From NCBI GenBank assembly GCA_017519975.1, contig JAFWRM010000053.1:27176-91175 (forward strand): DNA of 64,000 nucleotides, given 5' to 3'. The DNA is from Oscillospiraceae bacterium (GTDB taxonomy: Bacteria > Bacillota > Clostridia > Oscillospirales > Oscillospiraceae). Below, one piece after another: positions 4,410 through 44,405 of the stretch. How positions within the stretch are numbered: position 1 is the first letter of the stretch; each line of letters opens with the position of its first letter. Under the pieces are notes generated by a model. The model was not told where the DNA came from. It worked only from the letters and a program-made list of their open reading frames with translations, and made no database searches. The position numbers and the translations under genes were made by a program.

Positions 4410-4433
4410 TACGGAAACAGCAGGAGAATGACC

Positions 4434-5645: not shown

Positions 5646-5649
5646 CAGG

Positions 5650-6564: not shown

Positions 6565-6601
6565 ACGTCGTCACACGACCACATCAAGGAGATGATTCTC
6601 C

Positions 6602-7954: not shown

Positions 7955-7985
7955 CCCGCGGCCGCGAGAAACGGAGGTTTGAATC

Positions 7986-24260: not shown

Positions 24261-24272
24261 CGTCATCCCTCC

Positions 24273-26351: not shown

Positions 26352-26510
26352 TTCTTCCCGACCTCCGTTAAAACAGTCGCGTCCGTCTTCAGCTATAAAA
26401 CTGAACTGCTTTTATTATGCAGGATCAGCCGAGCCGTGGGAAATGCTAAATCTGTACCGAATGGTGCATCAACACTTTCTGCGGTCGCCCCTGTTTTCTC
26501 CAAAATGCCG

Positions 26511-26550
26511 AAATGACCCGGTGAGATCTGCGATCTCACCGGGTCATTTT
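26511..26550 (-). terminator. Terminator of the permease/MBL/methyltransferase operon
   Basis: AAATGACCCGGTGAGATC-TGC-GATCTCACCGGGTCATTT is a perfect 18-bp stem, 21 nt after the stop at 26571. Confidence 0.7.
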
Positions 26551-26570
26551 CAAAATTCAGGATTGTTTTT

Positions 26571-28477: not shown

Positions 28478-29302
28478 TTATTTACGGTCGAAGATGACCT
28501 CGTCCTGATAGAGGATGGCCGTGGGCACGTTCTCTCCGTCCAGCTTCCAGCAGACCACCGGGGGCTGACCGGGAGGCGACGGCATTTCCGGATGGTACGG
28601 CTTTGCCGTTCCGTCGATGATGGACTCCGCCATGCGGATCAGTTCCGTCAGATATTCCTTGCCCAGAACACAGGCGTCGTGTCCGCCCAGGAACCCGTCG
28701 TAGGCGTCACCCAGCTTTTCCACCTTCCGGAGGGAGCGCAGGTAGCACTCCATGGAAACGGTGGAGAAGGTGACCCAGGGTAGGCTCCGAAGCATCCAGA
28801 TGTTGTGGGCGTTGCTGCCGATCATGTCCCCGCCGAACAGCACGCGGTGCGTACGGTCCAGCAGACAGATGCACCCGGGGGTGTGGCCCGGGGTCTCGAC
28901 GACCTCCAGCGTGACCCCGCCGAGGTCGAACACGTCGCCCTCATGGACTGGGATCCGCTTCGTATCGTACCGCGGCAGATCCTCGTATTCCACTTCCCTG
29001 GGGCAGGGCGTGGACTCCGTCTCATCCTGATCGGGATAGCAGGCGGGATGCATGTATACCTCGGGGAACTGGAAGTTGCCCGCGGAATGGTCGAAATGGC
29101 AGTGCGTGTTGATGGCGACGATCGGCTTGCCCGGCGCGAGTTTTTCCACCGCCCGATGCAGGTCTCCGGTGCCCATGCCGTTATCGATCAAGGCCACCTT
29201 CCGCTCGCCTTCCACCACGTAGATGCAGCATTCCTCGGAAAAGCCGTACAGTACCCAGATGCCGGGCATGATCTGCTTGCTTTGATATTCCTTCTGTTTC
29301 AC
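28478..29302 (-). CDS. MBL-fold metallo-hydrolase (paralogue 1)
   Basis: NTHCHFDHSAGN (HxHxDH) and ETPGHTPGC motifs. 274 aa, 11 nt from the next MBL gene. Confidence 0.85.
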   Translation of the reverse strand: MKQKEYQSKQIMPGIWVLYGFSEECCIYVVEGERKVALIDNGMGTGDLHRAVEKLAPGKPIVAINTHCHFDHSAGNFQFPEVYMHPACYPDQDETESTPCPREVEYEDLPRYDTKRIPVHEGDVFDLGGVTLEVVETPGHTPGCICLLDRTHRVLFGGDMIGSNAHNIWMLRSLPWVTFSTVSMECYLRSLRKVEKLGDAYDGFLGGHDACVLGKEYLTELIRMAESIIDGTAKPYHPEMPSPPGQPPVVCWKLDGENVPTAILYQDEVIFDRK

Positions 29303-29345: not shown

Positions 29346-30752
29346 TCAGAACCAGTTCATCGTCAGGTAGCCGATCACCGTAAAGATCACGATGCCCATG
29401 ACGATCTGGGGCGCGGCTTCCTTCAGGATCTCCTTGCTGTCGATCCAGCCGTCGGGCTCCTTGGCGTACAGCAGAGTCAGCAGCGGAGAGCAGGCGGGCA
29501 GCAGCATGCCGTAGGCAGCCGCCTTCATCATGATCGCCTGCAGGCCGAGGTGGTTCACGCCGATCGTGTGAGCGATGGTCATGGTCAGCACGCAGAACAC
29601 GAGGGACGTGATGGCGCTGTCCAGCAGGTTGGTGACAACGACGGCCAGGACGACCAGCAGCAGGACCGCAACGAACGGGCTGACACTGCCGAGGATGGGG
29701 GAGAACAGACCGACGAGCCAGTCGGACACGCCGTACTCCGGAGCGCTCATGGAGCCGCAGATGACCTGGATGGCGGCCAGCATGAGGATCAGCTGCCAGG
29801 ACAGGCCGCTCTTTTCGATCTCAGCGAAAGGCATGAACGGAGTGCCGTTCTTCTTATGGATAAGCAGGGCGACGATGACGGTCAGGAAGCCGAAGCCGAT
29901 GAGGCCCCACTGGCCTTCCAGCACGTTGCGCACGCCGCTGCCCTGAGGCAGGAACGCGGGGATGAAAACGAGAAGCACGAAGCACAGCAGCAGGATGCCG
30001 GCGATCTTCTGATCGACGGTGAAGGGGACCTTCTCCGCCGGCGCCTTGTATTCACGCAGCTTTTCCACGTCGGGCCGGAACACGAACCGGACCAGCAGAA
30101 CGTTGCATACCAGGAACACGGCCAGCATGATCAGGGAGGCGCCGGTGTAGGTCAGCGGCTTCCAGACGACGCTGGGATCCATGGCGGTGATCATTCCCAC
30201 GGCGGGAATGACGCCCGTGGACAGGTGAGAGCTCATCATGCCGACGGTGGCGGCGGAGCAGATGGCGATCAGAATGACCTTCGGGGTCTTGTCGCCCTTG
30301 TCATAGCCGCAGCTCTCGAAGATGCCGTAGGCCAGATCCCAGATGACCAGAACGACGGCCATGCCGGGCAGCACCAGGCTCAGGACCGCGGCCACGACCA
30401 TCAGCAGCGTGATGATGACCCAGGGCTTGCCGTTGGCAAATTTGGTGTTGACCATCTTCATGGCGATGGCCTTGGTGAATCCCGTGCTCATCATGATGCC
30501 GCAGATCATCAGCAGCGGCAGCAGCATGACGACGATGTAGCTTCCCAGGCCCTGCATGAAGGAAGCGGCGATGCCGTTTCCGCTGATGAAGCCCATGGCG
30601 ATGAAGCCGATCAGAGTGGGGATCACCATGTCGATGGTGCACCAGCCCCATACGCAGGACACCAGCAGCGCCAGGTTCTGCAGACCCTTGCGGGTCAGAG
30701 GACCGTCGGCCGCCAGAGGCAGATTCGAAATGATCAGATACAGGATGATCAT
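29346..30752 (-). CDS. Ion-transporter-superfamily permease (DASS/ArsB-NhaD/CitMHS-like anion carrier)
   Basis: 468 aa, more than 10 hydrophobic helices, internal two-fold pattern. No RBS precedes the ATG at 30752. The frame continues upstream through a TAG to an RBS-ATG at 30800 (see the next feature). Confidence 0.75.
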   Translation of the reverse strand: MIILYLIISNLPLAADGPLTRKGLQNLALLVSCVWGWCTIDMVIPTLIGFIAMGFISGNGIAASFMQGLGSYIVVMLLPLLMICGIMMSTGFTKAIAMKMVNTKFANGKPWVIITLLMVVAAVLSLVLPGMAVVLVIWDLAYGIFESCGYDKGDKTPKVILIAICSAATVGMMSSHLSTGVIPAVGMITAMDPSVVWKPLTYTGASLIMLAVFLVCNVLLVRFVFRPDVEKLREYKAPAEKVPFTVDQKIAGILLLCFVLLVFIPAFLPQGSGVRNVLEGQWGLIGFGFLTVIVALLIHKKNGTPFMPFAEIEKSGLSWQLILMLAAIQVICGSMSAPEYGVSDWLVGLFSPILGSVSPFVAVLLLVVLAVVVTNLLDSAITSLVFCVLTMTIAHTIGVNHLGLQAIMMKAAAYGMLLPACSPLLTLLYAKEPDGWIDSKEILKEAAPQIVMGIVIFTVIGYLTMNWF

Positions 30753-31064: not shown

Positions 31065-31988
31065 GTGCTGTCCTTCGAGTATATCCGTTACTTTCTGGAA
31101 GCGTGCGACTGCGGCAGCATCCAGGCAGCTTCGAAAAAGCTGTTTCTCTCCGCCCAGGGGCTCGGTGCGGGGATCCAGCGCCTGGAAAACTCGCTTGGCC
31201 TGAAGCTGCTCGTGCGTTCCAAGTCCGGCGTGACGCCGACGCAGTTCGGGAAGGAGTTCTATCTGTACGCTTCCCGTCTGGCGGAGGACATGGATCAGCT
31301 GGAGCAGTTCTGCCAGGAATACCGGAAGAGCCAGGCGTCGGACACGCTGATCGGCGTGGTGGGAGACAACAAGTTCGCCAGTTCGATCACGCTGTGCGCC
31401 GAACTGTACAGCCGTGACCATCCGGATCGGCCGACGAACGTTTCCGCCATCTCCTTTGAAAGCTCCGAATCCCTGCAGGAAGCCCTCCGCGCGGGCGAAC
31501 TCGACGCCGCCTGGGTCTTTCACCGCGAGGAGCAGCCGGGGTTCATCTACCGTCGGATCGACGAATACAGCCCGCTGGTACTGATCTGCAGCGCAGACTG
31601 CAGCCTTGCGGGCCGAAGCTCGGTCTCCCTTCAGGATCTGGGCGCGCTGCGGTTCATACAGGCCGGGCGGGCGGATTCCATCACGGAGCTCGTCAGCCGG
31701 CTGTTCACGGAGGCCGGCGTACGTCAGGACATCTTCATGTATTCCACGGAAAACATCATGATCGGCAAGCTGATCGACGACGGCATCGCCGCCATCCTTC
31801 TCCGTGACTGCTACGCCCCGGCCGTTGTCAAGCACTGTACCCGCTGCGCCGTCGTCCCGCTGGAGCCGGAGGTACTCGTGGCAAGCTCCCTGATATCCAG
31901 AGCACCGCGGTCCCGCCATTCGGTCCAGAGCAAGTTTTTCGACTACATGGCCGACTACCTCCACCAGCATCTTTTCACCTACCGCTGA
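31065..31988 (+). CDS. LysR-family transcriptional regulator
   Basis: GTG start after GGAAGAGGAG. HTH GSIQAASKKLFLSAQGLGAGIQRLENSLGLKLL. 307 aa. Divergent from the permease operon and upstream of the GRE genes. Confidence 0.85.
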   Translation: MLSFEYIRYFLEACDCGSIQAASKKLFLSAQGLGAGIQRLENSLGLKLLVRSKSGVTPTQFGKEFYLYASRLAEDMDQLEQFCQEYRKSQASDTLIGVVGDNKFASSITLCAELYSRDHPDRPTNVSAISFESSESLQEALRAGELDAAWVFHREEQPGFIYRRIDEYSPLVLICSADCSLAGRSSVSLQDLGALRFIQAGRADSITELVSRLFTEAGVRQDIFMYSTENIMIGKLIDDGIAAILLRDCYAPAVVKHCTRCAVVPLEPEVLVASSLISRAPRSRHSVQSKFFDYMADYLHQHLFTYR

Positions 31989-32009
31989 ATCCCCATCCCC
32001 GCGAACCTG

Positions 32010-32040
32010 CCGCCGCCCGGAAGCCCGGGCGGCGGTTTTC
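32010..32040 (+). terminator. Rho-independent terminator after LysR
   Basis: CCGCCGCCCGG-AAGC-CCGGGCGGCGG followed by TTTTC. Confidence 0.7.
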
Positions 32041-32170
32041 TACCAACAACAAAAAGTTTTCTCTCCCACAACAAATATATGCTTTGTCATCGCCCCGTTT
32101 TCGTTTAGTATTGTTGATATAAAATGGTAGCACTGCATCGCGGCGCGTTTTCAGGAAGGAGTGAGCTGCC

Positions 32171-34594
32171 ATGTATGAACTGAAGCCCGTCACCGACCGG
32201 GTAAAGAAAATGCGGGAGAAGTACCGCACCACCAAGCCAGAGATCTGTACCGCCCGATACCGGCTGGTGACGGAATTCTATATGAACAATCCGCACCTGA
32301 CGGGCATCCTCAAGCGCGCGAAAAATCTGCAGAACATCTGTGAGAACATCCCCGTGAACATCTATGAGGATGAGGTGATCGTCGGAGAGCAGGGATTCAA
32401 GTACCGTTCCTGCGCTCTGTACCCGGAGACGGGCTTTGCCTGGATCAAATCCGAGATCGACACCCTGCCCACCCGGTATGTGGATCCCTACGACATTTCG
32501 GAAGAAAACAAGCGGTACATCCTGGACACCTATGATTTCTGGCTGACCCACACCCACGGGGCTCAGGCGGACGCCTATGTGCCGGACTTCCTGTACGCCC
32601 ACGAGGGCAACGGGGTGACGACGTTCCGTTCCAGGGGCGGGCACGCCGCTCCCGTCGGGCATTTCTGCGCCAACCACAACAAGGCCATCCACAAGGGCTT
32701 CGGCGCCATCAAGGCCGAAGCGGACCGGAAGGTGAAGGAGCTGGAGGCTCAGGGAATTCCGGGAACGACGATCGACAACTATAATTTCTACCGCGCCGTT
32801 TCCATCGTCTGCTCCGCCGTCATCACCCTGACGAAACGCTACGCGGCGGAAGCCCGCCGCCAGTGGGAGGCCTGCGCCGACCCCGGCCGCCGGAAAGAGC
32901 TGGCCATGATGGTCGATACGCTGGAGCGCGTGATCGAAAATCCGTGCGAGACCTTCTACGACGGCCTGCAGTGCCTGTTCATGTATCAGACCGTACTGGC
33001 GCTGGACGGCAACCTGCACGGGCTCTCCTTCGGGCGTGTGGATCAGTACCTGATCGACCTTTACGAGGCGGACGTCGCCGCCGGCCGCATCACACCGGAA
33101 TACGCCCAGGAGCTGCTGGACCTGTTCTACCTCAAGGTCGCGGAAATGAACAAGGTCGTGGGCCTGCTGCCCACGGAATCCGGCCCGGGCTACACCAGCG
33201 GACAGCTGATGACTTTGGGCGGGACGGACCGTGACGGGAACGACGCCACCAACGCCGTGACCTACATGATGCTGCAGACCGCCGGTCGTCTGGTCCTCCA
33301 CGATCCCCCGCAGGCGCTGCGGATCCACCCCGGCACCCCCGCGGAACTCTGGGAGGCGGCCATCCAGACCACGAAGATCTCCGGCGGCGTTCCCACCTTC
33401 GAAAACGACGCGGTGATCGTCCCCGCCCTGATGAAGCGCGGCCTGTCGGCCGAAAGCGCCCGCAACTACTGCCTGATCGGCTGCGTGGAGCCTGCCGGCT
33501 GCGGCGACGAATGGCCCGCCTGCGGAGGCCCCGGCGCAGAGAGCTACTTCAACCTGGCCAACGCCCTGTACCTGGCGATCAACGACGGCTTCAACCCCAT
33601 GCCCAGCCGCGGAGGCCCTCCGCGGAAGGAACGCGTCGGTCTTCCCACCGGGTACCTGAAGGACATGCCGGACATGGCCCACGTTTACGACGCCTTCCGC
33701 CGGCAGGTGGAGTTCTTTGTGAATCTTCACTGCGCCTGCGCCAACTCCTATGAGTACACGACCCGCGAGGCGATGCCGCTTCCCGTGGTATCGGCCACCA
33801 TCGACGGCTGCATGGAAAAGGGGCTGGACGTCATGTACGGCGGAGCGAAGTACAACTCCACCGGCATCGCCGGCATCGCGCTGGGCAACGCCGCGGACTC
33901 TCTGCAGATGATCGAGCATCTGGTGTTCGACCGGAAGATCTGTACCGCCGAGGAGCTGCAGGACGCCCTGGCGAAGAACTGGGAGGGGTATGAAGCGCTG
34001 CACGAATACGTGAAGACGAAGGCTCCCCATTACGGCAACAACGATCCGGAGGCGGACAAGTACGTCACACCCATCACGGAGATGTTCGCGAAGGCCGTTA
34101 CCTCCCATACGGGGCCGCGCGGCAACCGCTTTGCGCCCGGCATGTATCCGGTGACGACGAACATTCTGTTCGGCAAGCAGACGCCCGCTACTCCGGACGG
34201 CCGCTTCCGCGGCGAGCCTCTGGCGGACGGGATCTCCCCCGTGCAGGGGCAGGACAGGCACGGCCCCACTGCGCTGCTGTCTTCGATCCTTCACTTCAGC
34301 AACCAGAGCGACTATTCCAACGGCACCCTGCTGAACATGAAATTCGATCCCAACTCCGTGAAGACGGAGCAGGACATCGGCAAGCTGGCCACTCTGATGA
34401 AGACCTATTTCGCCAACGGCGGCATGGAGATGCAGATCAACGTGGTGGATACCCGGACCATGCGGCGGGCGCAGGAACATCCAGAGGAATACCGGGACCT
34501 GGTGGTGCGCATCGCGGGCTTTTCCGCCTACTTCGTGGAGCTGGCTCCCGAGGGCCAGCACGATCTCATCAGCCGCACGGAACTGAATCTCTGA
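32171..34594 (+). CDS. Glycyl radical enzyme with canonical eliminase/dehydratase-type motifs, substrate unknown (GRE2)
   Basis: 807 aa. GH motif (VGHFCANH, His164), GRVDQY, Cys loop LIGCVEPAG (Cys438 codon 33482-33484, Glu440) and glycyl motif VVRIAGFSAYF. GGAAGGAG RBS. Confidence 0.9.
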   Translation: MYELKPVTDRVKKMREKYRTTKPEICTARYRLVTEFYMNNPHLTGILKRAKNLQNICENIPVNIYEDEVIVGEQGFKYRSCALYPETGFAWIKSEIDTLPTRYVDPYDISEENKRYILDTYDFWLTHTHGAQADAYVPDFLYAHEGNGVTTFRSRGGHAAPVGHFCANHNKAIHKGFGAIKAEADRKVKELEAQGIPGTTIDNYNFYRAVSIVCSAVITLTKRYAAEARRQWEACADPGRRKELAMMVDTLERVIENPCETFYDGLQCLFMYQTVLALDGNLHGLSFGRVDQYLIDLYEADVAAGRITPEYAQELLDLFYLKVAEMNKVVGLLPTESGPGYTSGQLMTLGGTDRDGNDATNAVTYMMLQTAGRLVLHDPPQALRIHPGTPAELWEAAIQTTKISGGVPTFENDAVIVPALMKRGLSAESARNYCLIGCVEPAGCGDEWPACGGPGAESYFNLANALYLAINDGFNPMPSRGGPPRKERVGLPTGYLKDMPDMAHVYDAFRRQVEFFVNLHCACANSYEYTTREAMPLPVVSATIDGCMEKGLDVMYGGAKYNSTGIAGIALGNAADSLQMIEHLVFDRKICTAEELQDALAKNWEGYEALHEYVKTKAPHYGNNDPEADKYVTPITEMFAKAVTSHTGPRGNRFAPGMYPVTTNILFGKQTPATPDGRFRGEPLADGISPVQGQDRHGPTALLSSILHFSNQSDYSNGTLLNMKFDPNSVKTEQDIGKLATLMKTYFANGGMEMQINVVDTRTMRRAQEHPEEYRDLVVRIAGFSAYFVELAPEGQHDLISRTELNL

Positions 34595-34655
34595 TCCTTC
34601 CGGGGATCGATACCATACAGGCAACCATAAAACTACGAACAAACAGACAAGGAGC

Positions 34656-37082
34656 GTGGACCCATTGACGGACAGACTGAAGCGGATGTACAGTCAGATC
34701 AAAACCAATTACCAGCACATCGGCATCGAAAAATTCAAAATCATCACCAGGACCGAAGCGGAGTGCGCCGGCTATCCGGCCATCCTTCGCCGCGGCCAGA
34801 CCCTGAAGAACGTGCTGGAACAGTTCCCCATCTTCATCGGGGAGGACGAACTATTCGTCGGCAACCCGGCCAGCAAGCCCTGGGGTCTGGAGATCGAAGC
34901 CGGCCTGGGCAAATGGAGCCGGGAAGAGTGCGAATACCTCCGGGAGGACGGGTTCGATTTCAGTGAAGAGGACCAGGAGGAGATGCTGCGCATCAACGAG
35001 CAGTTCCATCCCTTCGGCATGTATCAGGGAGCGAATCTGATCATCGCGGAGAACGACCGCCTGGACGTGTTTGCCCGCAGCGGCATGATGCTGGCCCCCT
35101 GGAAGAAGGACAAGACTCTGGGCAACCGCGTGGGCGGCGGCGCCGCCTGCTCCGGTCTGGGCAACGGCCCCGGCTGGAACCTGCTGTGCATCGATTACGG
35201 ACTGGCACTGAACAAGGGCCTGGACGCCATGATCGCGGAATGCGATGAGGAGATCCAGAACAACCGCTATTTCGACAAGCGTTCCTTTGAGCGCGGCATC
35301 ACCCTGCAGGCCATGAAGCTGTCGCTTCAGGGACTGGTCAATTACGCAAAGCGCTTTTCCGTCCTCGCCGCGGAGATGGCCGAAGCGGAGTCCGATCCCC
35401 GCCGGAAAAAGGAGCTTGAGGAGATCTCCGCGATCTGCGCCAACGTGCCGGCGAAGCCCGCCCGCACCTTCCGTGAGGCCATGCAGTGCTTCTGGTTCAT
35501 GTTCATGATGGTGAACCCGGCGCCCACTCCCACCATCGGGCGCTTCGACCAGTACATGTACCCCTTCTACAAGGCGGACATCGAAGCCGGCCGCATCACG
35601 GACGACGAGGTGCTGGAACTGCTGGGCATGCTGCGCATCCGCTGCATGGAGATGAACCAGCAGTCCGGCCGCGAAATCCGCAAGAGGACCTCCGGCGGCG
35701 CCCGTTGGATGAACATGACCATCGGCGGCGTCAAGCCCGACGGCAGCGACGCCTGCAACGAGCTGACCCGTCTGATCCTTCAGGCGGTGCGCGACGTCCG
35801 CGCCCCGCATCACACCGTCACGCTGCGCGTGAGCGATTCCACCCCGGACGACGTGATGCTTCTCGCTCTGACCTGCCAGGCGGAGGGCTGCTCCATGCCC
35901 GCCTTCGTCGGCGACAAGTCCTACATTGATTACTTCACCCAGGTGCACAACCCGGACGACGGTCTCCCGATCGAGGTCGCCCGCGATTACTGCATGACCG
36001 GCTGCATCGACGGCAACGTACAGTACCGCACGCGCACGATGGGCATCACCATGTTCGTCTGCCCGCTGATGCTGGACATCTTCATGAACAACGGCTGGGA
36101 TAAGAACATTGAGGAGCAGGTGGGCCATCCCATCACCGGGGATCTGACGAAGTATGAGACCTTCGACCAGTTCATGGCGGACTTCCTGTCCGAATACCGT
36201 TATTTCGTGGAGACCGCGGCCGAAAAGCTGAACATCGAGAGCGCCGTTTTCAAGGAGCTGCTTCCCGATCCCTTCCGCGCCGCCTTCATGGCCAACGGCA
36301 TCAAGTCCGGTCTGGACTGCTACGCGCAGGAGTATCCGTTCGAAAGCAACCAGCTGCTCAATCCTGTGGGCATGGTGAACCTGGCCCAGTGCCTGTACGC
36401 GATCAAAAAGCTCTGCTTTGAGGAAAAGGTGTGCACGCTGCCCGAGATGAAGAAGGCCATGGACGCCAACTGGGAAGGCTATGAGGACCTGCACCGCCGC
36501 TGCCTGGAGCTGCCTCACTACGGCAACGGCAACGAGGACGCCGACGACATGGTGCGTCAGTGCTACCGCTGGTGGGTGGACATCGCCAACCAGACGCCGT
36601 CCTCTCTGGGCGGGCATTTCCGCTGCTCCGCCATCTCCGTTACCAGTCATCAGCCCGGCGGCGCTCTGTGCGGCGCGATGCCGGACGGCCGTTACAAAGG
36701 CGACATTCTGGCCGACGCCTGCGCTTCCCCCATGGCCGGCTGTGACCACGAGGGTCCGCTGGCGGTGTTTACCTCCGCCATGAAGATCCCGCAGGATGAG
36801 TTCCAGGCCATGTTGCTGAACATGAAGTTCTCCCCCAGCGCTCTTGCCACCGACCGCGACAAGATGAAGCTGGCCAGCGTCATCAAGGCGTACTTCGCCA
36901 ACGGCGGCAAGCACGTTCAGTTCATCGTGGAGGATCAGGAGACACTGAAAGACGCCAAGGAGCATCCGGAGAACCACAGCGATCTGATGGTGCGTGTGGC
37001 CGGATACAGCACGTATTTCGTACAGCTGACGCCCGGCCTGCAGGACGAGGTCATCGCCCGCACGGAGAACACCCATATCTGA
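34656..37082 (+). CDS. Divergent glycyl radical enzyme lacking Cys-x-Glu and Gly-His motifs, substrate unknown (GRE3)
   Basis: 808 aa. Glycyl motif MVRVAGYSTYF and GRFDQY are present. The Cys loop is MTGCIDGN (Cys450 codon 36003-36005, Asp452). The GH segment is replaced by GNGPGWNLLCIDYG. The GTG at 34656 is 1 nt after AAGGAG, so the in-frame TTG at 34665 is an alternative start. Confidence 0.9.
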   Translation: MDPLTDRLKRMYSQIKTNYQHIGIEKFKIITRTEAECAGYPAILRRGQTLKNVLEQFPIFIGEDELFVGNPASKPWGLEIEAGLGKWSREECEYLREDGFDFSEEDQEEMLRINEQFHPFGMYQGANLIIAENDRLDVFARSGMMLAPWKKDKTLGNRVGGGAACSGLGNGPGWNLLCIDYGLALNKGLDAMIAECDEEIQNNRYFDKRSFERGITLQAMKLSLQGLVNYAKRFSVLAAEMAEAESDPRRKKELEEISAICANVPAKPARTFREAMQCFWFMFMMVNPAPTPTIGRFDQYMYPFYKADIEAGRITDDEVLELLGMLRIRCMEMNQQSGREIRKRTSGGARWMNMTIGGVKPDGSDACNELTRLILQAVRDVRAPHHTVTLRVSDSTPDDVMLLALTCQAEGCSMPAFVGDKSYIDYFTQVHNPDDGLPIEVARDYCMTGCIDGNVQYRTRTMGITMFVCPLMLDIFMNNGWDKNIEEQVGHPITGDLTKYETFDQFMADFLSEYRYFVETAAEKLNIESAVFKELLPDPFRAAFMANGIKSGLDCYAQEYPFESNQLLNPVGMVNLAQCLYAIKKLCFEEKVCTLPEMKKAMDANWEGYEDLHRRCLELPHYGNGNEDADDMVRQCYRWWVDIANQTPSSLGGHFRCSAISVTSHQPGGALCGAMPDGRYKGDILADACASPMAGCDHEGPLAVFTSAMKIPQDEFQAMLLNMKFSPSALATDRDKMKLASVIKAYFANGGKHVQFIVEDQETLKDAKEHPENHSDLMVRVAGYSTYFVQLTPGLQDEVIARTENTHI

Positions 37083-37107: not shown

Positions 37108-38046
37108 TTGACCGACCGATACATGGAGCTGACGGCGCCGATCTTCAACGTGCAGACGTACTCCATCCACGACGGCCCCGGCATCCGCGTGACAGTTTTT
37201 GAAAAGGGCTGTCCGCTGCGGTGCCGGTGGTGCGCCAATCCGGAATCCAATCTGGCGCGCCCTCAGCTGATGACCTACGCCGCAAAATGTACGGCGTGCG
37301 GCCGCTGCGTAGCCGTATGTCCGCAGAAGGCCGTTTCCATCGGAGAGCTGCACGACAAGCCCTGTGCCCTCACGGATCGGGCTCTGTGCGTGGAGTGCGG
37401 CGCCTGCGTGGACGTCTGTCCCTGCGAAGCCCGCGAGATCGTCGGACAGGAAAAGACCGTACGCGAGGTATTGGACCAGGTTCTCAGGGACAAGCTGTTC
37501 ATCGACGCCTCCGGGGGCGGCATGACCGTCAGCGGAGGAGAATGCCTCGCCCATCCCGACTTTACCGAGGCCCTGCTGTACGCCGCGAAGGAGCATGGGC
37601 TCCATACGGCCATCGAATCCTCTTCCTTCGCCCCGGAACCCATTTTCGACCAGGTGCTGCGCTATGTGGATCTGGCTCTGCTGGACATCAAGCACATGGA
37701 CTCCAATACCCATCGGGAACTCACGGGAGTGCCGAACGAGCAGATCCTCAGCAACATCCGGCACGCGGTGCGGGATCTGAAGAAGGAGGTCACCGTCCGT
37801 GTCCCCACGATTCCCGGATACAATGATTCCGAGGAAAACATCCGGGCGACGGCCCGATTCGTGAAGGAGGAGCTGGGGCCCGGGGTCGGCGTACATCTGC
37901 TTCCCTACCATCGCCTCGGGGAATCGAAGAACGAAAGCCTCGGCAAGGCCATGGATCTTTCCGTGACCGTCCCGTCCGACGAGCACATGCAGGAGCTGAA
38001 GGCGCTTGTGGAATCCTACGGCCTTTACTGCCAGATCGGCGGCTGA
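37108..38046 (+). CDS. Glycyl-radical enzyme activating enzyme (radical SAM, two extra ferredoxin-type clusters)
   Basis: CPLRCRWCANPES (CX3CX2C) plus CTACGRCVAVCP and CVECGACVDVCP. TTG start 10 nt after AAAGGAG, 25 nt after GRE3. Confidence 0.9.
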   Translation: MTDRYMELTAPIFNVQTYSIHDGPGIRVTVFEKGCPLRCRWCANPESNLARPQLMTYAAKCTACGRCVAVCPQKAVSIGELHDKPCALTDRALCVECGACVDVCPCEAREIVGQEKTVREVLDQVLRDKLFIDASGGGMTVSGGECLAHPDFTEALLYAAKEHGLHTAIESSSFAPEPIFDQVLRYVDLALLDIKHMDSNTHRELTGVPNEQILSNIRHAVRDLKKEVTVRVPTIPGYNDSEENIRATARFVKEELGPGVGVHLLPYHRLGESKNESLGKAMDLSVTVPSDEHMQELKALVESYGLYCQIGG

Positions 38047-38184: not shown

Positions 38185-39417
38185 TCAGAAGATCCTGTCA
38201 AAATTGTCCGGTCCGAGCTGCTCGTAAACGGAATGGATCTGAGCCAGTCCGCCGTGGGCGGTCTCCCGGTATTTTTCATCCATGTCGATCCCCGTCTCGT
38301 ACATCGTCGCGATGACCTCGTCCAGCGAGATCCGCCGGGTATCGGACAGGAAACGGGAGATATTGACCGCGTTGACGACACGCATGGCTCCGATGGCGTT
38401 CCTTTCGATGCACGGGATCTGAACCAGTCCCCTGACCGGGTCACAGGTCAGGCCAAGCTGGTGTTCCATCGCGATCTCCGCGGCGTACTCGATCTCCGCC
38501 AGAGAGAGGCCGTACAGCTGTGCCAGCCCGGCGGCAGCCATGGAGCAGGCGCTGCCGATCTCCGCCTGACAACCGCATTCCGCGCCGGATACGCTGGCGT
38601 TCGTCCGTATGATGTTCCCGATCAGCCCCGCGATCGCCAAAGCGTCAACGATCTCTTCATCGGAAAAGCCCCGGTCATGCTTCATGTAATAGAAAACGGC
38701 AGGGATGATCCCGCAGCTGCCGCAGGTGGGCGCCGTGACCACGATCTGTTCGTCCGCGTTCTCTTCGCTGACGGCAAAGGCGTAGGCCGCCAGCTTCCGG
38801 TCGAACGTGACGTCCGACGGCTCGTTATGGCAGCGCATGGTGTACAGGTGCTTTGCCTTCCGCTCCAGATTCAGGCCCCCGGGCAGGATCCCTTCCGCCG
38901 CCAGTCCCCTGTGCACCGCCTCCTGCATGGCGTTCCATACGGTGAGAAGATACTCCCGGATATCCGGCTGTTCCTTCGAATAGACATATTCCAGGAGAGT
39001 CATGCCGGACTGCCGGCAGGCTTCCCTGAACTGATGAAAGCTTCTTTCGGCATACACATCGGCGTCGTCGGGGGAGGTCTCTCCCTCGATGCGGATGGAG
39101 CCCCCGCCTACGCTCATGATCCGCAGAGCGCCGATCTCGGCCCCGGCCCGTCTGGCGCGGAACCACATGGTGTTCGGATGAGGCAGGTCCTTTTCCTTTT
39201 TGTCCGATACGATCTTCGCCGAAGGAATGACCGTACGGATCGCCTTTCCGGTGCCGTGCCCCTCTCCGGTAAACGCGAGGGAGCCGTACAGTGTGACCTC
39301 GTATTCGTCCGCCTCCGGATAACGCGACGCAAACAGACGCGCCGCGTTGTAAGGGCCGACGGTATGGGAACTGGACGGCCCGTTTCCTATCTTGTATACG
39401 CTTCTTATGCTTCTCAA
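38185..39417 (-). CDS. sdaA: L-serine ammonia-lyase, Fe-S dependent, single-chain (beta-alpha fused)
   Basis: YKIGNGPSSSHTVGP N-terminal motif and CGCQAEIGSAC cluster-region motif. TTG at 39417 lies 9 nt after GGAGG. The longer track ORF (to 39582) runs through the tRNA gene and was rejected. Confidence 0.8.
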   Translation of the reverse strand: MRSIRSVYKIGNGPSSSHTVGPYNAARLFASRYPEADEYEVTLYGSLAFTGEGHGTGKAIRTVIPSAKIVSDKKEKDLPHPNTMWFRARRAGAEIGALRIMSVGGGSIRIEGETSPDDADVYAERSFHQFREACRQSGMTLLEYVYSKEQPDIREYLLTVWNAMQEAVHRGLAAEGILPGGLNLERKAKHLYTMRCHNEPSDVTFDRKLAAYAFAVSEENADEQIVVTAPTCGSCGIIPAVFYYMKHDRGFSDEEIVDALAIAGLIGNIIRTNASVSGAECGCQAEIGSACSMAAAGLAQLYGLSLAEIEYAAEIAMEHQLGLTCDPVRGLVQIPCIERNAIGAMRVVNAVNISRFLSDTRRISLDEVIATMYETGIDMDEKYRETAHGGLAQIHSVYEQLGPDNFDRIF

Positions 39418-39529
39418 AGATCGACACCTCCACAGCAGCCGGCTCCCGTTCCCGCCCGTCCACCGGGCAGCGGGATAAGAAAAAGGGCTGTGCACCGCGG
39501 ATCGGAGATCCACTGTGCAACAGCCCCTT

Positions 39530-39606
39530 TGGTACGCCCGATGCGATTCGAACGCACGACCTTCAGAGTCGGAGTCTGACACTCTATCCAGCTGAGCTAC
39601 GGGCGC
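39530..39606 (-). tRNA. tRNA-Arg (anticodon CCG), CCA encoded
   Basis: The minus strand reads GCGCCCGTAGCTCAGCTGGATAGAGTGTCAGACTCCGACTCTGAAGGTCGTGCGTTCGAATCGCATCGGGCGTACCA. It folds into a cloverleaf by hand: 7-bp acceptor (G1-U72), D arm, anticodon stem TCAGA/TCTGA with loop CTCCGAC, and T arm GTGCG-TTCGAAT-CGCAT. Confidence 0.85.
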
Positions 39607-39674: not shown

Positions 39675-40289
39675 TCAGCGGGGGATGGCCGACTCCAGCG
39701 CTCTGCGCCCCAGCTCCTCGGCCTTTTCTTCCGGAATGAAGAACACGATGGCCGCCAGAATGATGGAGACGCGCTCCTCCGGAGCCGTTTTGATCATTAC
39801 GTCCTGATCCGTAACGGAAAACATCTCCGTCCGCACCTTCTCCGCCGAGGCCTTGATATGGCCGATAACGCCGCCCATCTCATTGACGGCGGCGGCAAAC
39901 TGCTTCAGTCCCTCTCCCAGTCCGAGGCGGATCGCGTCGTAGTCGCCGGTCAGCTCCAGGCTGCCGGATACCACCTTCGCGTCGTCGTGCAGTTTCACCT
40001 GGGTATAGACCACGCCGGGCACTTTCTGCTCATGGAGCTGCTTGTGCTCATGTTCGTGGTCGTGACCGCAGCCGCAGTCATCGCCGTGCTCGTGATGATG
40101 GTGATGGTCGTGATGGTGTTCATCGCAGCCGCCGGTTCCGTCATGCTCATGATGATGGTGATGGTGCTCATGGCAGCCGCAGTGTTCCCCGTGTTCATGT
40201 TCGTGATGGTGGCCGTGCGTATGCTCATGCTCGTGATTCCCGCAGCCGCAGGGCTCCGGCCGCTGTTCCAGGATCTCTTCCTCACTCAT
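39675..40289 (-). CDS. His/Cys-rich metal-binding protein with CobW_C-like C-terminal domain (detached C-terminal half of a COG0523 protein)
   Basis: About 70 N-terminal residues are made of H/E runs punctuated by CGCG/CGC/GGC/CGCG. These are followed by about 120 aa resembling the CobW C-terminal domain. The ATG at 40289 overlaps the upstream TGA (ATGA), and GGAAGGGAG lies 10 nt upstream. Confidence 0.6.
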   Translation of the reverse strand: MSEEEILEQRPEPCGCGNHEHEHTHGHHHEHEHGEHCGCHEHHHHHHEHDGTGGCDEHHHDHHHHHEHGDDCGCGHDHEHEHKQLHEQKVPGVVYTQVKLHDDAKVVSGSLELTGDYDAIRLGLGEGLKQFAAAVNEMGGVIGHIKASAEKVRTEMFSVTDQDVMIKTAPEERVSIILAAIVFFIPEEKAEELGRRALESAIPR

Positions 40290-40885
40290 TCTCCCAGCAC
40301 TCCCTTCCACACGGTCTCTTCCACCGGCTTCAGGCCGGAAATGTGATAGATGTTCGCTTTCGGCTCGAAGGAAAGAATGTCCTTATCCACGGCCTGCACG
40401 GTGGCTTCCTCCACCAGATCGATCTTGTTGACCAGCACGGCGTCCGATCCCTGGATCTGCCCCATGAGCAGATTCTCCATGGGGATGCGCAGCCGGCGCC
40501 AGCGGGACGCGTCTACCAGAACGCCGATGCGGGATTCGATCCCCAGGGCGATCTGAAGGTTCTCCTGGATGCGGATCGGGTAGGCCAGGCCCGTCGTCTC
40601 CACGATCAGCCATTCGGGGTCGTATTCCTTGCGTATCCGGCCGGCCGCGGTCACCATCTCTCCGGACACACTGCAGCAGGCGCAGCCGGCGAACAGGTTG
40701 TCCACCTGGAAGCCTCCGCCCCGCAGGAACGCGTCGTCGATGCCCACCTCACCGATCTCGTTTTCAAGGATCATCACCTTGATCTCCTTGTCCGACCTGC
40801 TGTTTTCCACGATGTAGCGGGCCAGCTGCATCAGACAGGTCGTCTTTCCCGATCCGAGGAATCCTCCGAAGATCAGTACTTTCAT
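40286..40885 (-). CDS. COG0523 (CobW/ZigA/YjiA-type) G3E GTPase domain, stand-alone
   Basis: Walker A GGFLGSGKTT, canonical metal motif GCACC, and the NKIDL specificity motif. It is 199 aa and ends where fused family members continue into a His-rich linker. Confidence 0.8.
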   Translation of the reverse strand: MKVLIFGGFLGSGKTTCLMQLARYIVENSRSDKEIKVMILENEIGEVGIDDAFLRGGGFQVDNLFAGCACCSVSGEMVTAAGRIRKEYDPEWLIVETTGLAYPIRIQENLQIALGIESRIGVLVDASRWRRLRIPMENLLMGQIQGSDAVLVNKIDLVEEATVQAVDKDILSFEPKANIYHISGLKPVEETVWKGVLGE

Positions 40886-40966: not shown

Positions 40967-41986
40967 TTATTTGTAGAAGGTATGGGAGATCTCGTCGAAG
41001 GTCTCGCTCAGCACCTTGTTCTTGTGGGCGCTGACCGTATCCTTGGGACCGGTTCCCATGAAGCTGCCCATCCAGCAGAAATCGCCGTTGGGAGCCAGCA
41101 TGTTCACGGTGTCGTATACGGACTGGCGGATCTCTTCATCCGTGCAGTCGGCGCTCAGCAGGCGCCCGTCGGCGTGCCAGCCGCCCATGATCGTCAGCTT
41201 GCCGGCGTAGTCCGCCTTGATCTTCTTCAGGTCGTTCATGGGCTGGGCGGGATCCCACGCCGTCACGCCGAAATCGACCATGTCGGGAATGACCGCTTCA
41301 CAGTGGCCGCAGTTGTGGAACGTGATGGGCAGTCCGCGCTCGATGCCGAACTTGGCCTGACGCTTGTAGCAGGGCACCAGGAACTCCCGGTACATGTCCG
41401 GAGAAATGAACATGTTGAGGGCGGAAGCCGTATCGTCCATCATGGTGAACACGTCCGGCTTCACGTAGTCGATGATCTTCTCGGCGACGGTGCAGTAGAA
41501 CGTGCAGATGTAGTCCAGCAGAGCCTCGACCTCTTCCGGCTCTTCATAGAACATCATCAGGCCGTCCTCAAATCCCATGAAGGCCATCAGGTTCTGGAAA
41601 AAGCCGAAATGCAGGTTAAAGGCGATGGCCGTCTCCTCACGGTTGACGCCGCAGTGATCCAGGCTCTTCTTTGCCATGGCTTTCCAGTCGATGCCTTCCA
41701 GGGAGGGCGCCTTGATGACGTCACGCCACTTGGTGATGTCCGGCAGGATGTAGTCCCACGTCTTGGGGATCAGCGCGCCCGCCGTCTCCGGGCTGGAGAT
41801 GTATTCCACGCCCCAGTGATCCTTTCCTCCGCCGCGCCAGCGGTGATCGGCCAGGATCTCCGGTTCCAGGATGCAGTTGGGAGGATTCGAGGGATCCCCA
41901 GGCAGGATGCCGAAGGTATACTTCGGGATGTATTCCGGGATCTGATGATGCAGAGTCCGGAGATAGTTTTCTTTCTGATTGAGCAT
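40967..41986 (-). CDS. URO-D-family (MtaA/CmuA-like) zinc methyltransferase, paralogue 3
   Basis: 339 aa with H-x-C-G (ITFHNCGHC). N-terminal ENYLRTLHHQIPEYIP is similar to paralogues 1 and 2. Confidence 0.8.
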   Translation of the reverse strand: MLNQKENYLRTLHHQIPEYIPKYTFGILPGDPSNPPNCILEPEILADHRWRGGGKDHWGVEYISSPETAGALIPKTWDYILPDITKWRDVIKAPSLEGIDWKAMAKKSLDHCGVNREETAIAFNLHFGFFQNLMAFMGFEDGLMMFYEEPEEVEALLDYICTFYCTVAEKIIDYVKPDVFTMMDDTASALNMFISPDMYREFLVPCYKRQAKFGIERGLPITFHNCGHCEAVIPDMVDFGVTAWDPAQPMNDLKKIKADYAGKLTIMGGWHADGRLLSADCTDEEIRQSVYDTVNMLAPNGDFCWMGSFMGTGPKDTVSAHKNKVLSETFDEISHTFYK

Positions 41987-42058
41987 AATTCCTCTCCATT
42001 CCGCGGCACAGTACCGGGATCCCCGCCCTGCCGCCAGTTTCTTTGTCTTTCCAGTATA

Positions 42059-42241
42059 TCACAGGCTCTGTGTTTCTTCCAAGGGTTTTTTCACTTTTTC
42101 GATCAGGCTGCATACGGACGCGAATTCACAGGCGGGATACAGACAGTCGGTGCTCCATCCGCCGCTCTCCCATTCACAGCACAGCACGCGGCTCCCGTCC
42201 AGCTTGCGGCAGTAACCCGTGACGATGAGTTCGTCCTTCAT
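42059..42241 (-). CDS. 60-aa cysteine-rich protein, unknown function
   Basis: MKDELIVTGYCRKLDGSRVLCCEWESGGWSTDCLYPACEFASVCSLIEKV... contains 6 Cys. Its ATG overlaps the DUF2284 stop as ATGA. Only the last 60 codons of the 136-aa track ORF were kept. Confidence 0.45.
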   Translation of the reverse strand: MKDELIVTGYCRKLDGSRVLCCEWESGGWSTDCLYPACEFASVCSLIEKVKKPLEETQSL

Positions 42242-42777
42242 TCCAGCAGGAAGCAGCCCGTGTAGCAGATCGTATCCTTCCCGTGGTTGTAGGGCACGCC
42301 GTTGGCGGTGCACACCTCGCTCACCACAAGGCCGCAGGCTTCCATGGAGCTGACGAGTTCGTCCGGAAAACGGCAGGGGGCGTCCGGGTAGGTGCAGGTC
42401 TTGCAGCGGGTGCAGGTCCCGGTGCCCATGCCCATCATATCCGGATACATCTCCCGCATGAGCTTCCACATCTTCGAATAATTTTCGCTCTGTTTTTCGG
42501 CCGTCTCCTGGATGGTCTCAAAATCGAAGCTGTCCTCCATCTGGCCCACCGTCTGCACCAGGATGCCGGCGGTATAATTTTTGACTTTGTCCCGCATTTC
42601 CTCCAGCGATCCGCATCCCGGCGGGCAGGCCCAGGATTTTCCGTACATGCCGCAGGTATTGGCTGCGCACATGTCCCTCACCTCAGGCAGAAATCTCAGG
42701 GTAGATACGTCCAGCTTCCCCCAGGAGTTGAATCCGCATTCCTTCGCGATCTCAAACAGTTTTTCGTAGTCAAGCAT
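42238..42777 (-). CDS. DUF2284-like predicted metal/Fe-S-binding protein
   Basis: 179 aa with Cys motifs CAANTCGMYGKSWACPPGCG and GTCTRCKTCTYPDAPCRFP, characteristic of DUF2284. Confidence 0.7.
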   Translation of the reverse strand: MLDYEKLFEIAKECGFNSWGKLDVSTLRFLPEVRDMCAANTCGMYGKSWACPPGCGSLEEMRDKVKNYTAGILVQTVGQMEDSFDFETIQETAEKQSENYSKMWKLMREMYPDMMGMGTGTCTRCKTCTYPDAPCRFPDELVSSMEACGLVVSEVCTANGVPYNHGKDTICYTGCFLLE

Positions 42778-42860
42778 AACAGAACCTCCTTCGGCATTTA
42801 CGCCGCGTTTTATTGTTTCCCTTTTTCCTCTTCATCCTCTTTTCTCATCCGCGCACGGTT

Positions 42861-44405
42861 TCAGTTCTCCCATTCCTCTTCCGGGATGAACATCATCTGC
42901 TCAATGAACTCGTCGTTGAACGTCCGGCTCGTGGAGAGCTCGATGTAGGTGCATCGGGCGCACAGATCCACCACCCTGCGGCGGTCCTTCTCCGACCACA
43001 CCGCCAGGGCCGCGCCTTCGCCGGCCGTATTGCCCATGGTCCTGGCGACCGGCAGGAATTCCTTCGGAAACAGGCCCATCCGCGCGGCGCTGGTCTTGTC
43101 CATGTAGCTTCCGAACCCTCCGCACAGCAGAAAACTCTTCACCTCGGTGACGTTGGCTTCCTTCATCATGGTGCGTATGCCGGCGGCGATGGCGGACTTG
43201 GCCAGCTGCAGCTTGCGCACGTCGTCCGCGGTCACGCACACGCCGGTCGACCGGTCGGCATAGAACACATTCTTTCCGTCCACCGTTCCCATGTATTCCG
43301 TAACGGGGCCCTCCAGTTCATCGGCGCCCAGAAGGCGGCCGCCTTCATCCACGACCCCGTTTTTCAGCATGGCGGCCAGTACGTCCAACAGGCCGGAACC
43401 GCAGATGCCGGTGCTGGGCACATCCCCGATCACATCGATCTCCAGCCTGCCGTCGGTCCAGCGGGCGTGGTTGATGGCGCCGGGCACCGCGGCCATGCCG
43501 TAAGTGATCTCCGCCCCTTCGAAGGCGGGCCCCGCCGCGGTGGCGCACACATACCATTCGTCCCCGTCCTTCAGGCCCATTTCGCCGTTGGTGCCGATGT
43601 CCAGATACACCACCGGCCCGGCTTCCTCGTCCAGATTGCAGGCCATCATTCCGATGGTGATGTCACCGCCCACATAGGAGTGCACGCAGGGGGCCATGAA
43701 GCACATGGTTCCCGGCGCTACGGGCATATCGTCGCCGGCCGGGATCTCCTCCCCGAACAGGCTCACAGGGGTGAAGGGCACCACGCCCATCCCCACGGGG
43801 GAATACCCTGCGAACAGATGCTGCATGATGGTGTTGCCCGCGACGGAAAGATATGTGATCTGTTCCTGCTTTACGCCGGATTTGCGCATGTTTTCACGGA
43901 TCAGATCCGCCAGCTGACCGCGGATCGCGGCCGTCAGCTTTTCATGGCCGTGGGCGGCGCAGTACTGGATGCGGCTGATCACGTCGGCCCCGAACGGGCG
44001 CTGGGCGTTGACGCCGCTGGACGTGGCCACCCTTTTTCCGGTAGGCAGATCCGTCAGATGGGCGACCACCGTGGTGGTGCCGATGTCCACGGCGATGCCG
44101 TAGGGGCCCGTCGTTCCTTCCGCGGAATCACCGGCGCCGTGCCCCTCCTCCGCGATCTTCATCTCGTTCATCTCATCGGGGAGATAAATGTCCGTATCTC
44201 CTTCCAGAAGCGTCGTACAGGCTTTCACCTTTTCCCCGTCGGGGGCAAGCTGCACCAGACATTTGCCGCACTTGCCCTGCCCGCCGCACGGCGCGTCCAG
44301 GAACTCTCCCGCCGCCGTTACGCAGTGCAGCAGGGTATCTCCCACTTTTCCGCTGGTTTCTTTCAGCAGAACGCCGTCGCGAAACAGCCTTACCTTTGCG
44401 TCCAT
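42861..44405 (-). CDS. RACo-type reductive activator of corrinoid proteins (2Fe-2S ferredoxin + ASKHA ATPase; AcsV-like)
   Basis: N-terminal CGGQGKCGKCLV...C plant-type ferredoxin motif, then the ASKHA phosphate motif GIAVDIGTTTVV. 514 aa. Confidence 0.8.
   Translation of the reverse strand: MDAKVRLFRDGVLLKETSGKVGDTLLHCVTAAGEFLDAPCGGQGKCGKCLVQLAPDGEKVKACTTLLEGDTDIYLPDEMNEMKIAEEGHGAGDSAEGTTGPYGIAVDIGTTTVVAHLTDLPTGKRVATSSGVNAQRPFGADVISRIQYCAAHGHEKLTAAIRGQLADLIRENMRKSGVKQEQITYLSVAGNTIMQHLFAGYSPVGMGVVPFTPVSLFGEEIPAGDDMPVAPGTMCFMAPCVHSYVGGDITIGMMACNLDEEAGPVVYLDIGTNGEMGLKDGDEWYVCATAAGPAFEGAEITYGMAAVPGAINHARWTDGRLEIDVIGDVPSTGICGSGLLDVLAAMLKNGVVDEGGRLLGADELEGPVTEYMGTVDGKNVFYADRSTGVCVTADDVRKLQLAKSAIAAGIRTMMKEANVTEVKSFLLCGGFGSYMDKTSAARMGLFPKEFLPVARTMGNTAGEGAALAVWSEKDRRRVVDLCARCTYIELSTSRTFNDEFIEQMMFIPEEEWEN

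Follow-up and report, generated by a model that had tools for sequence, protein, structure and literature searches.

Among the glycyl radical enzymes (GREs), all 1,2-eliminases and isomerases keep a CXE motif, whose Glu lies two residues past the thiyl Cys and hydrogen-bonds the substrate, and the superfamily review of June 2026 never mentions a CXD (Cys-x-Asp) loop (PMC13450708). The same review describes Gln484 as catalytically essential in phenylacetate decarboxylase (PAD) (PMC13450708). The Cys loop of arylacetate decarboxylase (AAD, PDB entry 7e7l) reads Cys-Val-Leu in our alignment. In PAD, Gln484 presumably occupies the Cys+2 position as well. A second motif, Gly-His (GH), contributes the His (His164 in glycerol dehydratase, GD) that protonates the leaving hydroxyl in the diol and hydroxyproline dehydratases. 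Here we describe GRE3, a gene product in which both motifs are altered. It is encoded in a stretch of 64,000 nucleotides (hereafter the window) from an Oscillospiraceae bacterium (assembly GCA_017519975.1, contig JAFWRM010000053.1, positions 27,176 to 91,175 of the forward strand) and was pointed out by a first-pass annotation of this DNA. The annotation had expected a Glu at Cys+2 in GRE eliminases and decarboxylases alike. This holds for eliminases, isomerases, HPAD and IAD, of which CXE is a hallmark, yet not for all characterised decarboxylases, as the AAD loop demonstrates.

Judged by sequence comparison, GRE3 (34656..37082, plus strand) appears to represent a deep and widespread subfamily defined by the invariant Cys loop G-C-[LIVN]-D-[GAV]-x-[ILV]-P-G. 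At 36000-36011 its codons are ggc tgc atc gac, which translate into Gly449-Cys450-Ile451-Asp452, in agreement with the Cys450-Ile-Asp452 that had been read at codons 36003-36011. The loop G449-C450-I451-D452-G453-N454 (36000..36017, plus strand) thus holds the thiyl-radical Cys and, in place of the CXE Glu, an Asp that is invariant in the clade. Whether a C-[IV]-D clade exists had been raised as a question, and a Cys-[ILVN]-Asp clade is indeed found. Among the best 120 GRE3 homologs from a search of 5.8 billion proteins (46-97% identity), G-C-[ILVN]-D is present in 120/120. In an exhaustive HMMER search of 1.84 billion cluster representatives at 50% identity, Cys-x-Asp holds down to 34-39% identity (P0044, P0121-P0123, P0125-P0130, P0134, P0135), then other motifs take over. 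Altogether, 130/130 clade proteins carry it, at 34-97% identity to GRE3, in at least 14 clusters at 50% identity and in many phyla. For a comparison of single residues, 44 non-redundant clade members were set against 125 cluster representatives of other GREs. C450 and D452 are each found in 44/44 of the clade members, while the Cys+2 column of the other representatives contains Glu in 58, Ser in 13, His in 8 and Asp in 4. Since Cys+2 is not Glu in 54% of these other representatives, the Cys-x-Asp motif alone would be unexceptional, and departures from CXE and GH are common among uncharacterised GREs. What is distinctive in the Asp clade is its size, its depth and its absolute consistency.

In a neighbor-joining (NJ) tree, the Cys-x-Asp sequences cluster together, interrupted only by P0131 (C-I-P), which is nested among them. 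The trio that is sister to this group contains P0124, whose loop reads Cys-Ile-Glu, and the representatives that resemble characterised enzymes all fall into the other group of 120 sequences. GRE3 carries all clade markers tested, namely G-C-[LIVN]-D, the GGG...SGxGxGPG insertion in beta-1, R342, W351 and H385-H386. Further clade-specific conserved positions are G160-G162, G167, G169 and P172 within the beta-1 insertion, as well as R327, A349, K/R350, W606 and D735. The pair H385 (93%) and H386 (89%) stands where nearly all other GREs have Gln-Pro. Pairwise dN/dS between GRE3 and the six orthologs with usable dS is 0.04-0.17. Taken together, the invariance of the Asp, the grouping in the tree and these ratios indicate that the motif is a fixed, selected trait of a deep lineage, neither decay nor error.

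The clade occurs in rumen and gut Clostridia, in Syntrophus and Desulfatiglans, and in Acidobacteriota and Spirochaetia. Cultured isolates with clade members are Geosporobacter ferrireducens IRF9, Cuneatibacter sp. NSJ-177 and Clostridium sp. chh4-2. Many genomes encode several clade paralogues, often in tandem, such as Eubacterium sp. RGIG2447 and Geosporobacter ferrireducens with three each. One metagenome contig (L099, 1-18415) encodes four Cys-x-Asp GREs together with a CitMHS carrier, a pair of metallo-beta-lactamase (MBL)-fold hydrolases and a URO-D-like gene, a gene set which suggests a multi-step or multi-substrate pathway. Two proteins of the sister group were conspicuous in their own right: in P0137 the Cys of the Cys loop is absent (GALSIA) and the Gly loop reads RLGGGSCYF, while P0136 has RIGGCSAYF as its Gly loop. 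The two may represent radical enzymes of a non-canonical type.

The GRE3 coding sequence was called from its open reading frame (ORF) and translation and comprises 808 aa from GTG 34656, the start on which all residue numbers given here are based. However, the true start is probably TTG 34665, because an AAGGAG box (34649-34654) lies 10 nt before this in-frame codon and only 1 nt before the GTG, and because GRE3 orthologs start with MTDRL at the codon of TTG 34665. From there, the protein would comprise 805 aa and the residues would become Cys447/Asp449. GRE3 shows the features of the superfamily: both domains (Pfam PFL-like PF02901, E 3.9e-143; Gly_radical PF01228, E 1.2e-29), the RVxG[YF]S loop, the Cys of the Cys loop and a radical-SAM activase nearby. 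The glycyl radical loop RVAGYSTYF (residues 780-788, 36993..37019, plus strand; radical Gly783) is invariant in the clade, and the family-wide beta-2 motif GRFDQY (residues 295-300, 35538..35555, plus strand) is preceded by Thr291, which aligns to Ser282 of GD. Both are intact, as previously read. An AlphaFold model (pLDDT 88.9, pTM 0.91) shows the standard ten-stranded GRE barrel, with residues 340-350 and 660-670 as its lowest-confidence parts. The opinion of the first-pass annotation that GRE3 is functional rather than decayed is supported by all of this: its GRE fold is predicted with confidence, its Gly and Cys loops do not vary, an activase gene lies next to it, and its orthologs are under strong purifying selection.

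Directly upstream, GRE2 (32171..34594, plus strand) is a canonical paralogue with both CXE and GH (C438-V-E440 and G163-H164, confirming the earlier reading). Since GRE3 stands in tandem with such an enzyme and a single activase serves both, it might be regarded as a GRE2 paralogue that has decayed or become regulatory, or as the obligate hetero-partner of GRE2, without catalysis of its own. We consider this extremely improbable. The two proteins are only 29% identical, the Gly and Cys loops of GRE3 are intact under the low dN/dS given above, most ortholog loci have their own activase and no GRE2, and the clade is spread over many phyla. Only 3/18 ortholog loci (the window, L001 and L091) have a GRE2-like gene next to the ortholog, and therefore GRE2 is a lineage-specific addition that shares the activase, not an obligate or subunit partner. 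The idea of a GRE2-GRE3 heteromer or pseudo-enzyme was rejected on the gene context and the evidence for selection. Some observations concern GRE2 and the further GREs themselves. The Cys loop of GRE2 contains a Cys-rich insertion, GCVEPAGCGDEWPAC, which is also found in representative P0211, and in NCBIfam GRE2 stays below every equivalog cut-off, its best score being 597 bits against the 678 that TIGR01774 demands; it is thus uncharacterised as well. In GRE1 (10291-12744; 817 aa), the Cys loop is Cys-Gln-Glu (GCQEI) and GH lies at position 179; its scores, too, are below all equivalog cut-offs. In a 97%-identical relative (L001, Oscillospiraceae metagenome-assembled genome (MAG) GCA_017540565.1), a third GRE of 809 aa (5057-7486), 69% identical to GRE2, is located between the LysR gene and GRE2, where the window has a 183-nt spacer (31988-32171). 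Very long minus-strand ORFs opposite GRE2 and GRE3 (32105-34642 and 34851-37076) are artefacts of 60% G+C and not genes; similar antisense ORFs produced spurious clusters in the neighbourhood analysis.

Which of the described enzymes comes closest to GRE3 depends on the measure. The best solved relatives in the PDB share 25-31% identity with it. Foldseek aligned the model to every solved GRE listed with TM-scores of 0.85-0.91 at only 23-31% identity, and such global scores do not separate the GRE classes. GRE3 lacks the CXE of eliminases and isomerases, having Cys450-Ile-Asp452 instead, and reaches neither an equivalog cut-off in NCBIfam nor that of the TIGR01774 subfamily: it scores 432 bits against TIGR01774 (PFL2/glycerol dehydratase subfamily, cut-off 678.2), 424.7 against TIGR04394 (choline trimethylamine (TMA)-lyase, 1050), 356.8 against NF033715 (HPAD, 1150) and 409.4 against NF033718 (IAD, 1100). 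The X-succinate synthases, which are marked by small beta and gamma subunits and by an Arg past the Cys loop that binds fumarate, are represented by BSS and MASS as weaker matches (270 and 267 bits, TM-scores 0.85-0.87), and no small-subunit ORFs are found beside GRE3. Likewise, neither the 70-nt gap between GRE2 and GRE3 nor the 25-nt gap between GRE3 and the activase contains a small ORF for an HPAD-type Fe-S subunit.

By whole-sequence score, the choline TMA-lyase CutC (5fau, 5a0u, 9f3w) is the top PDB match, 9f3w reaching 411.6 bits, of which 354 are for the catalytic domain. It resembles GRE3 in fold (TM-scores 0.89-0.91), glycyl loop, thiyl Cys, an acidic residue at Cys+2, the GGG of beta-1 and an aromatic side chain where CutC has Phe395 (W351 in GRE3). 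In contrast, identity is only 27-29%, a 6-residue insertion in beta-1 is particular to GRE3, and, unlike for CutC, no microcompartment genes were found among the neighbours of the GRE3 clade that were examined. Furthermore, the substrate of CutC is cationic, whereas the neighbours of GRE3 suggest an anionic one. The best structural matches are the B12-independent glycerol and 1,2-propanediol dehydratases (1r8w, 5i2g; Foldseek E 2e-56 to 2.5e-55, TM-score 0.89; 27-30% identity), of which 1r8w reaches 379.9 bits over a single aligned domain. GD shares with GRE3 an acidic residue after the Cys and has Ser282 where GRE3 has Thr291, but differs in that its His164, Asp447 and Glu435 correspond to Asn170, Ile464 and Asp452.

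The third candidate is AAD, which shows the highest identity (31%) and the best single-domain HMMER score (395.6 bits). AAD and PAD also share with GRE3 the lack of a small subunit, a Cys loop other than CXE and plausible carboxylate substrates. The clade might consist of radical decarboxylases of (aryl)carboxylic acids that stand nearer in mechanism to AAD and PAD than to eliminases, and in which Asp452 would relay a proton to the thiolate or the alpha-carbon instead of acting as base on a substrate hydroxyl. The fact that characterised decarboxylases depart from CXE already, AAD with Cys-Val-Leu and PAD with its essential Gln484, fits this idea, although neither of these residues is acidic, and an invariant acidic Cys+2 is rather the hallmark of eliminases and isomerases. 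The Gly loop of GRE3 ends in SxYF as in eliminases, and not in SxxW as in AAD and AAD-like sequences, the beta-1 GGG resembles the GGGD of CutC, and the absence of a small-subunit gene at GRE3 speaks against a decarboxylase too. In the NJ tree, AAD-like representatives fall into the large outgroup and are not sister to the clade; a sister relation to AAD is thus not supported by this tree, the bootstraps of which are modest. We regard the decarboxylase explanation as possible, though on balance unlikely.

The second deviation of GRE3 concerns the Gly-His motif, in place of which the beta-1 segment R158-G182 (GGG...SGLGxGPGW; 35127..35201, plus strand) is found. The segment aligned to the motif, R158-VGGGAACSGLGNGPGWNLLCIDYG-182, contains no His, the stretch matching it reads RVGGGAACSGLGNGPGWNLLCIDYG, and there is no His in residues 150-183. 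The absence of GH, reported in the first-pass annotation, therefore stands. His164 of GD aligns to Asn170 by HMMER, in a column that is mostly Leu in the clade and not conserved. The HMMER alignments to CutC and GD further revealed that GRE3 has the GGG in common with CutC and an insertion of 6-11 residues. However, it would be an overstatement to expect GH in GREs generally: it is specific to the diol and hydroxyproline dehydratases (GD, PD, HypD), CutC has GGGD at this site, IslA uses Arg189/Gln193 there, and GH is absent in 25/58 of the other CXE representatives.

To locate the remaining active-site residues, HMMER alignments were combined with the strands beta 1, 2, 3, 6 and 8 that contribute to GRE active sites according to the IslA paper (PMC8473560). 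The resulting map is sequence-based, and the same authors found that GRE active sites recruit residues from shifted strands, which makes sequence-based predictions unreliable (PMC8473560). In this map, Tyr208 of CutC corresponds to Leu155 of GRE3, Asp216 to Ala163 (variable in the clade), Phe395 to Trp351, Glu491 to Asp452, Thr502 to Arg460 (Arg in 31/44 clade members) and Tyr506, like Asp447 of GD, to Ile464, while Ser282 and His164 of GD correspond to Thr291 (33/44) and Asn170. No indel separates Cys450 and Asp452 in the alignments to CutC, GD and AAD; therefore the Asp sits at the position of the Glu, one methylene shorter. The next residue, Cys+3, is Gly or Ala in the clade, while the usual GRE residue is Pro. 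In the beta-3 region R342-W351 (35679..35708, plus strand), R342 (100%), K/R350 (91%) and W351 (98%, at the CutC Phe395 position) are clade-specific, and we infer that they are candidate anion-binding and packing residues. Together with R460, the basic residues R342 and K/R350 lie on or beside active-site strands and could bind an anionic group or carboxylate. His665 on beta-8 was considered as a clade-specific stand-in for the missing His and ruled out, as a His is found there in 56/125 other GREs too.

Alternatively, Asp452 might be a structural or second-shell residue, with acid/base function supplied by His385-His386, Thr291 or an Arg/Lys, perhaps in a chemistry outside the known GRE classes. 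The replacement of a near-universal Gln-Pro by H385 and H386, the clade-specific R342, K/R350 and W351, and the recruitment of shifted-strand residues in GREs (PMC8473560) are compatible with such an arrangement. Yet the strand of H385/H386 is not among the five listed for GRE active sites (PMC8473560), and a direct role is the simplest way to account for Asp452, which never varies in the clade and sits at the catalytic loop's tip. Thus we judge a second-shell Asp452 to be distinctly unlikely. The reading we favour instead is that GRE3 is a catalytically competent GRE in which Asp452 would do the job of the Cys-loop Glu on an imported substrate that bears a carboxylate; we put its chances at about even. 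The first-pass annotation went one step further and proposed a different acid/base chemistry. The Asp swap is real, but a different chemistry is not established by it, as no replacement of Glu is more conservative than Asp. Since the swap is conservative and the sister protein P0124 carries Cys-Ile-Glu, which suggests that this lineage can use Asp and Glu interchangeably, the same general-base role appears at least as likely.

The genes around GRE3 provide hints on what such a substrate could be. On the plus strand, the operon order is LysR, GRE2, GRE3, activase. The LysR-type regulator (31065..31988; Pfam) is upstream of the operon, and the glycyl-radical activating enzyme (37108..38046; Pfam Radical_SAM/Fer4), which begins 25 nt past GRE3, has the radical SAM motif CPLRCRWC and two ferredoxin-like motifs and scores 350 bits against TIGR02494 (cut-off 174). 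Divergently, on the minus strand, lie a CitMHS/DASS-type anion transporter (29346..30752; Pfam and NCBIfam), two adjacent MBL-fold hydrolases (28478-29302 and 27675-28466; Pfam), both of which retain HxHxDH intact, two members of the URO-D family (26571-27575 and 25365-26351; Pfam and NCBIfam) whose zinc motif HxCG is that of MtaA-type methyltransferases and, at the end of this MBL/URO-D operon, two adjacent proteins with MoaF-N domains (23574-25121). Comparison with known proteins was of little help: NCBIfam gave only sub-threshold MtaA and MBL matches for the neighbours of GRE3, one of the hydrolases (MBLa) gave only weak glyoxalase-II/ETHE1/beta-lactamase matches in the PDB, no solved relative of the URO-D-like protein was found there, and the MoaF-like proteins have no NCBIfam match, the one at 24273-25121 having no PDB match either. 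An Rfam scan of the window for a riboswitch or other RNA clue to a ligand returned a tRNA only (39533-39606, minus strand), and promoter and terminator scans of the window were uninformative. This tRNA overlaps the 5' end of a long, serine-dehydratase-like ORF (38185-39582), and therefore the real gene starts further in.

Orthologs of GRE3 (18 loci with at least 68% identity and usable flanks) keep a similar company in changing arrangements. The MBL pair adjoins the ortholog in 10/18 loci and the URO-D-like gene in 9/18, and one or the other is adjacent in 13/18, in at least five gene orders. Examples are GRE3-AE-UROD-MBL-MBL (L002; AE, activating enzyme), MBL-MBL-GRE3-AE (L006 and L085) and UROD-GRE3-AE opposite LysR-CitMHS-MBL-MBL (L088). 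CitMHS/MatC carriers and LysR regulators recur beside the orthologs as well. In the goat-ileum Eubacterium MAG of L085, a 1424-aa protein with BcrAD_BadFG and DUF2229 domains (4052-8326) is encoded directly upstream of the MBL-MBL-GRE3-AE array; it is an ATPase akin to activators of 2-hydroxyacyl-CoA dehydratases. Across 36 loci of the wider clade, the neighbours include an activase in 19, MatC/CitMHS carriers in 11, PGA_cap in 9, URO-D in 7, carboxylesterases, family III CoA-transferases and TctA/TctC in 5 each, PrpD and HGD-type dehydratases in 4 each and TRAP carriers in 3. One locus (L004) contains three tannase genes, and another (L003) has Cyclase, BKACE and thiolase genes beside its clade GRE, a set that we take to resemble the enzymes of anaerobic phloroglucinol degradation. 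What these loci share is the import of organic anions, together with hydrolases that could free them from esters, lactones or amides.

This gene content bears on the decarboxylase explanation too. Carboxylate carriers, esterases, tannases, CoA-transferase III and HGD-type dehydratases recall the fermentation of aromatic acids, the phloroglucinol-like genes of the one locus point the same way, and O-demethylase-type genes surround GRE3. As for the latter, three URO-D-family proteins with HxCG are encoded on the minus strand of the window (within 25365-27575 and 40967-44405), and the presence of RACo (42861-44405), DUF2284, CobW and a protein rich in His (39675-40310) suggests methyl transfer that depends on corrinoids. 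A corrinoid-binding protein, which would support an O-demethylase pathway, was not found in the window by a DxHxxG regular expression.

Returning to the favoured role of Asp452 as substitute of the Cys-loop Glu, the following course of reaction can be envisioned. The activase (37108-38046) would place the radical on Gly783, and Cys450 would turn into a thiyl radical and take a hydrogen from the substrate. Asp452 would then act as the Cys-loop carboxylate, be it hydrogen-bond acceptor, general base or acid, as the Glu does in CutC, GD and HypD, and in this role promote a bond cleavage of the radical 1,2-elimination type. The shorter side chain of Asp and the Gly or Ala at Cys+3 would reshape the pocket to suit another substrate, probably a bulkier one, the carboxylate of which might be held by R342, K/R350 and R460. 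This substrate would be an anionic small molecule that enters through the CitMHS carrier and is recognised by the LysR regulator; its preparation or further processing would fall to the co-inherited pair of MBL-fold hydrolases together with the zinc URO-D-like protein.

Several points weigh against this proposal. The catalytic role of Asp452 is suggested by position and invariance only, and several candidate residues, at 340-350 and 660-670, fall where the model is least confident. Among single-domain sequence matches the best is AAD, a decarboxylase and not an eliminase, and for this reason the assignment to an elimination-type reaction is tentative. The exact clade split has modest bootstrap support (9/30, or 16/30 if the sister trio is included), and therefore the deep placement of the clade is soft. 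Three closely related orthologs (L089, L094, L102) and the locus of P0032 have no MBL or URO-D gene in view, and the neighbourhoods deeper in the clade are heterogeneous. Finally, no characterised member of the clade is found in the PDB, NCBIfam, the source names of the homologs, which are generic only, or the superfamily review (PMC13450708). Hence none of these sources places the C-I-D variant in an already characterised subfamily, which would have counted against the first-pass annotation. A full-text literature search for CXD or Asp Cys loops, new GRE functions and GREs combined with MBL or URO-D likewise found no characterised CXD enzyme; papers on limonenylsuccinate synthase, bile salt hydrolases that depend on a metal and the Desulfitobacterium proteome were retrieved and proved irrelevant.

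One might speculate further that the GREs of the Cys-x-Asp clade make up a new functional class, which would act on hydrolase-released carboxylates by a reaction outside the classes recognised in 2026, i.e., ribonucleotide reduction, formate lyase, decarboxylase, X-succinate synthase, 1,2-eliminase, isomerase and aminoacyl radical enzymes. A speculative example would be the stepwise radical dehydroxylation or C-C cleavage of plant hydroxy- or aromatic acids by tandem paralogues. We think a new class of this kind unlikely, but if the clade does catalyse a new class of reaction, the interest would be high.

Taken together, GRE3 belongs to a variant subfamily of a known kind of enzyme, and not to a new kind of system, and is a good lead for new anaerobic chemistry. 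Newly characterised GREs have each revealed a distinct anaerobic chemistry of ecological or medical weight, such as the formation of TMA, H2S, p-cresol or skatole. A large and phylogenetically broad clade can now be defined by a diagnostic signature in its catalytic loop, and it represents a natural experiment on whether the carboxylate of the Cys loop can be shortened by one methylene. Since orthologs of GRE3 are tied to a compact, reshuffled module of two MBL hydrolases, a zinc URO-D-like protein, an anion carrier and a LysR regulator, this module provides a concrete handle for finding the substrate.

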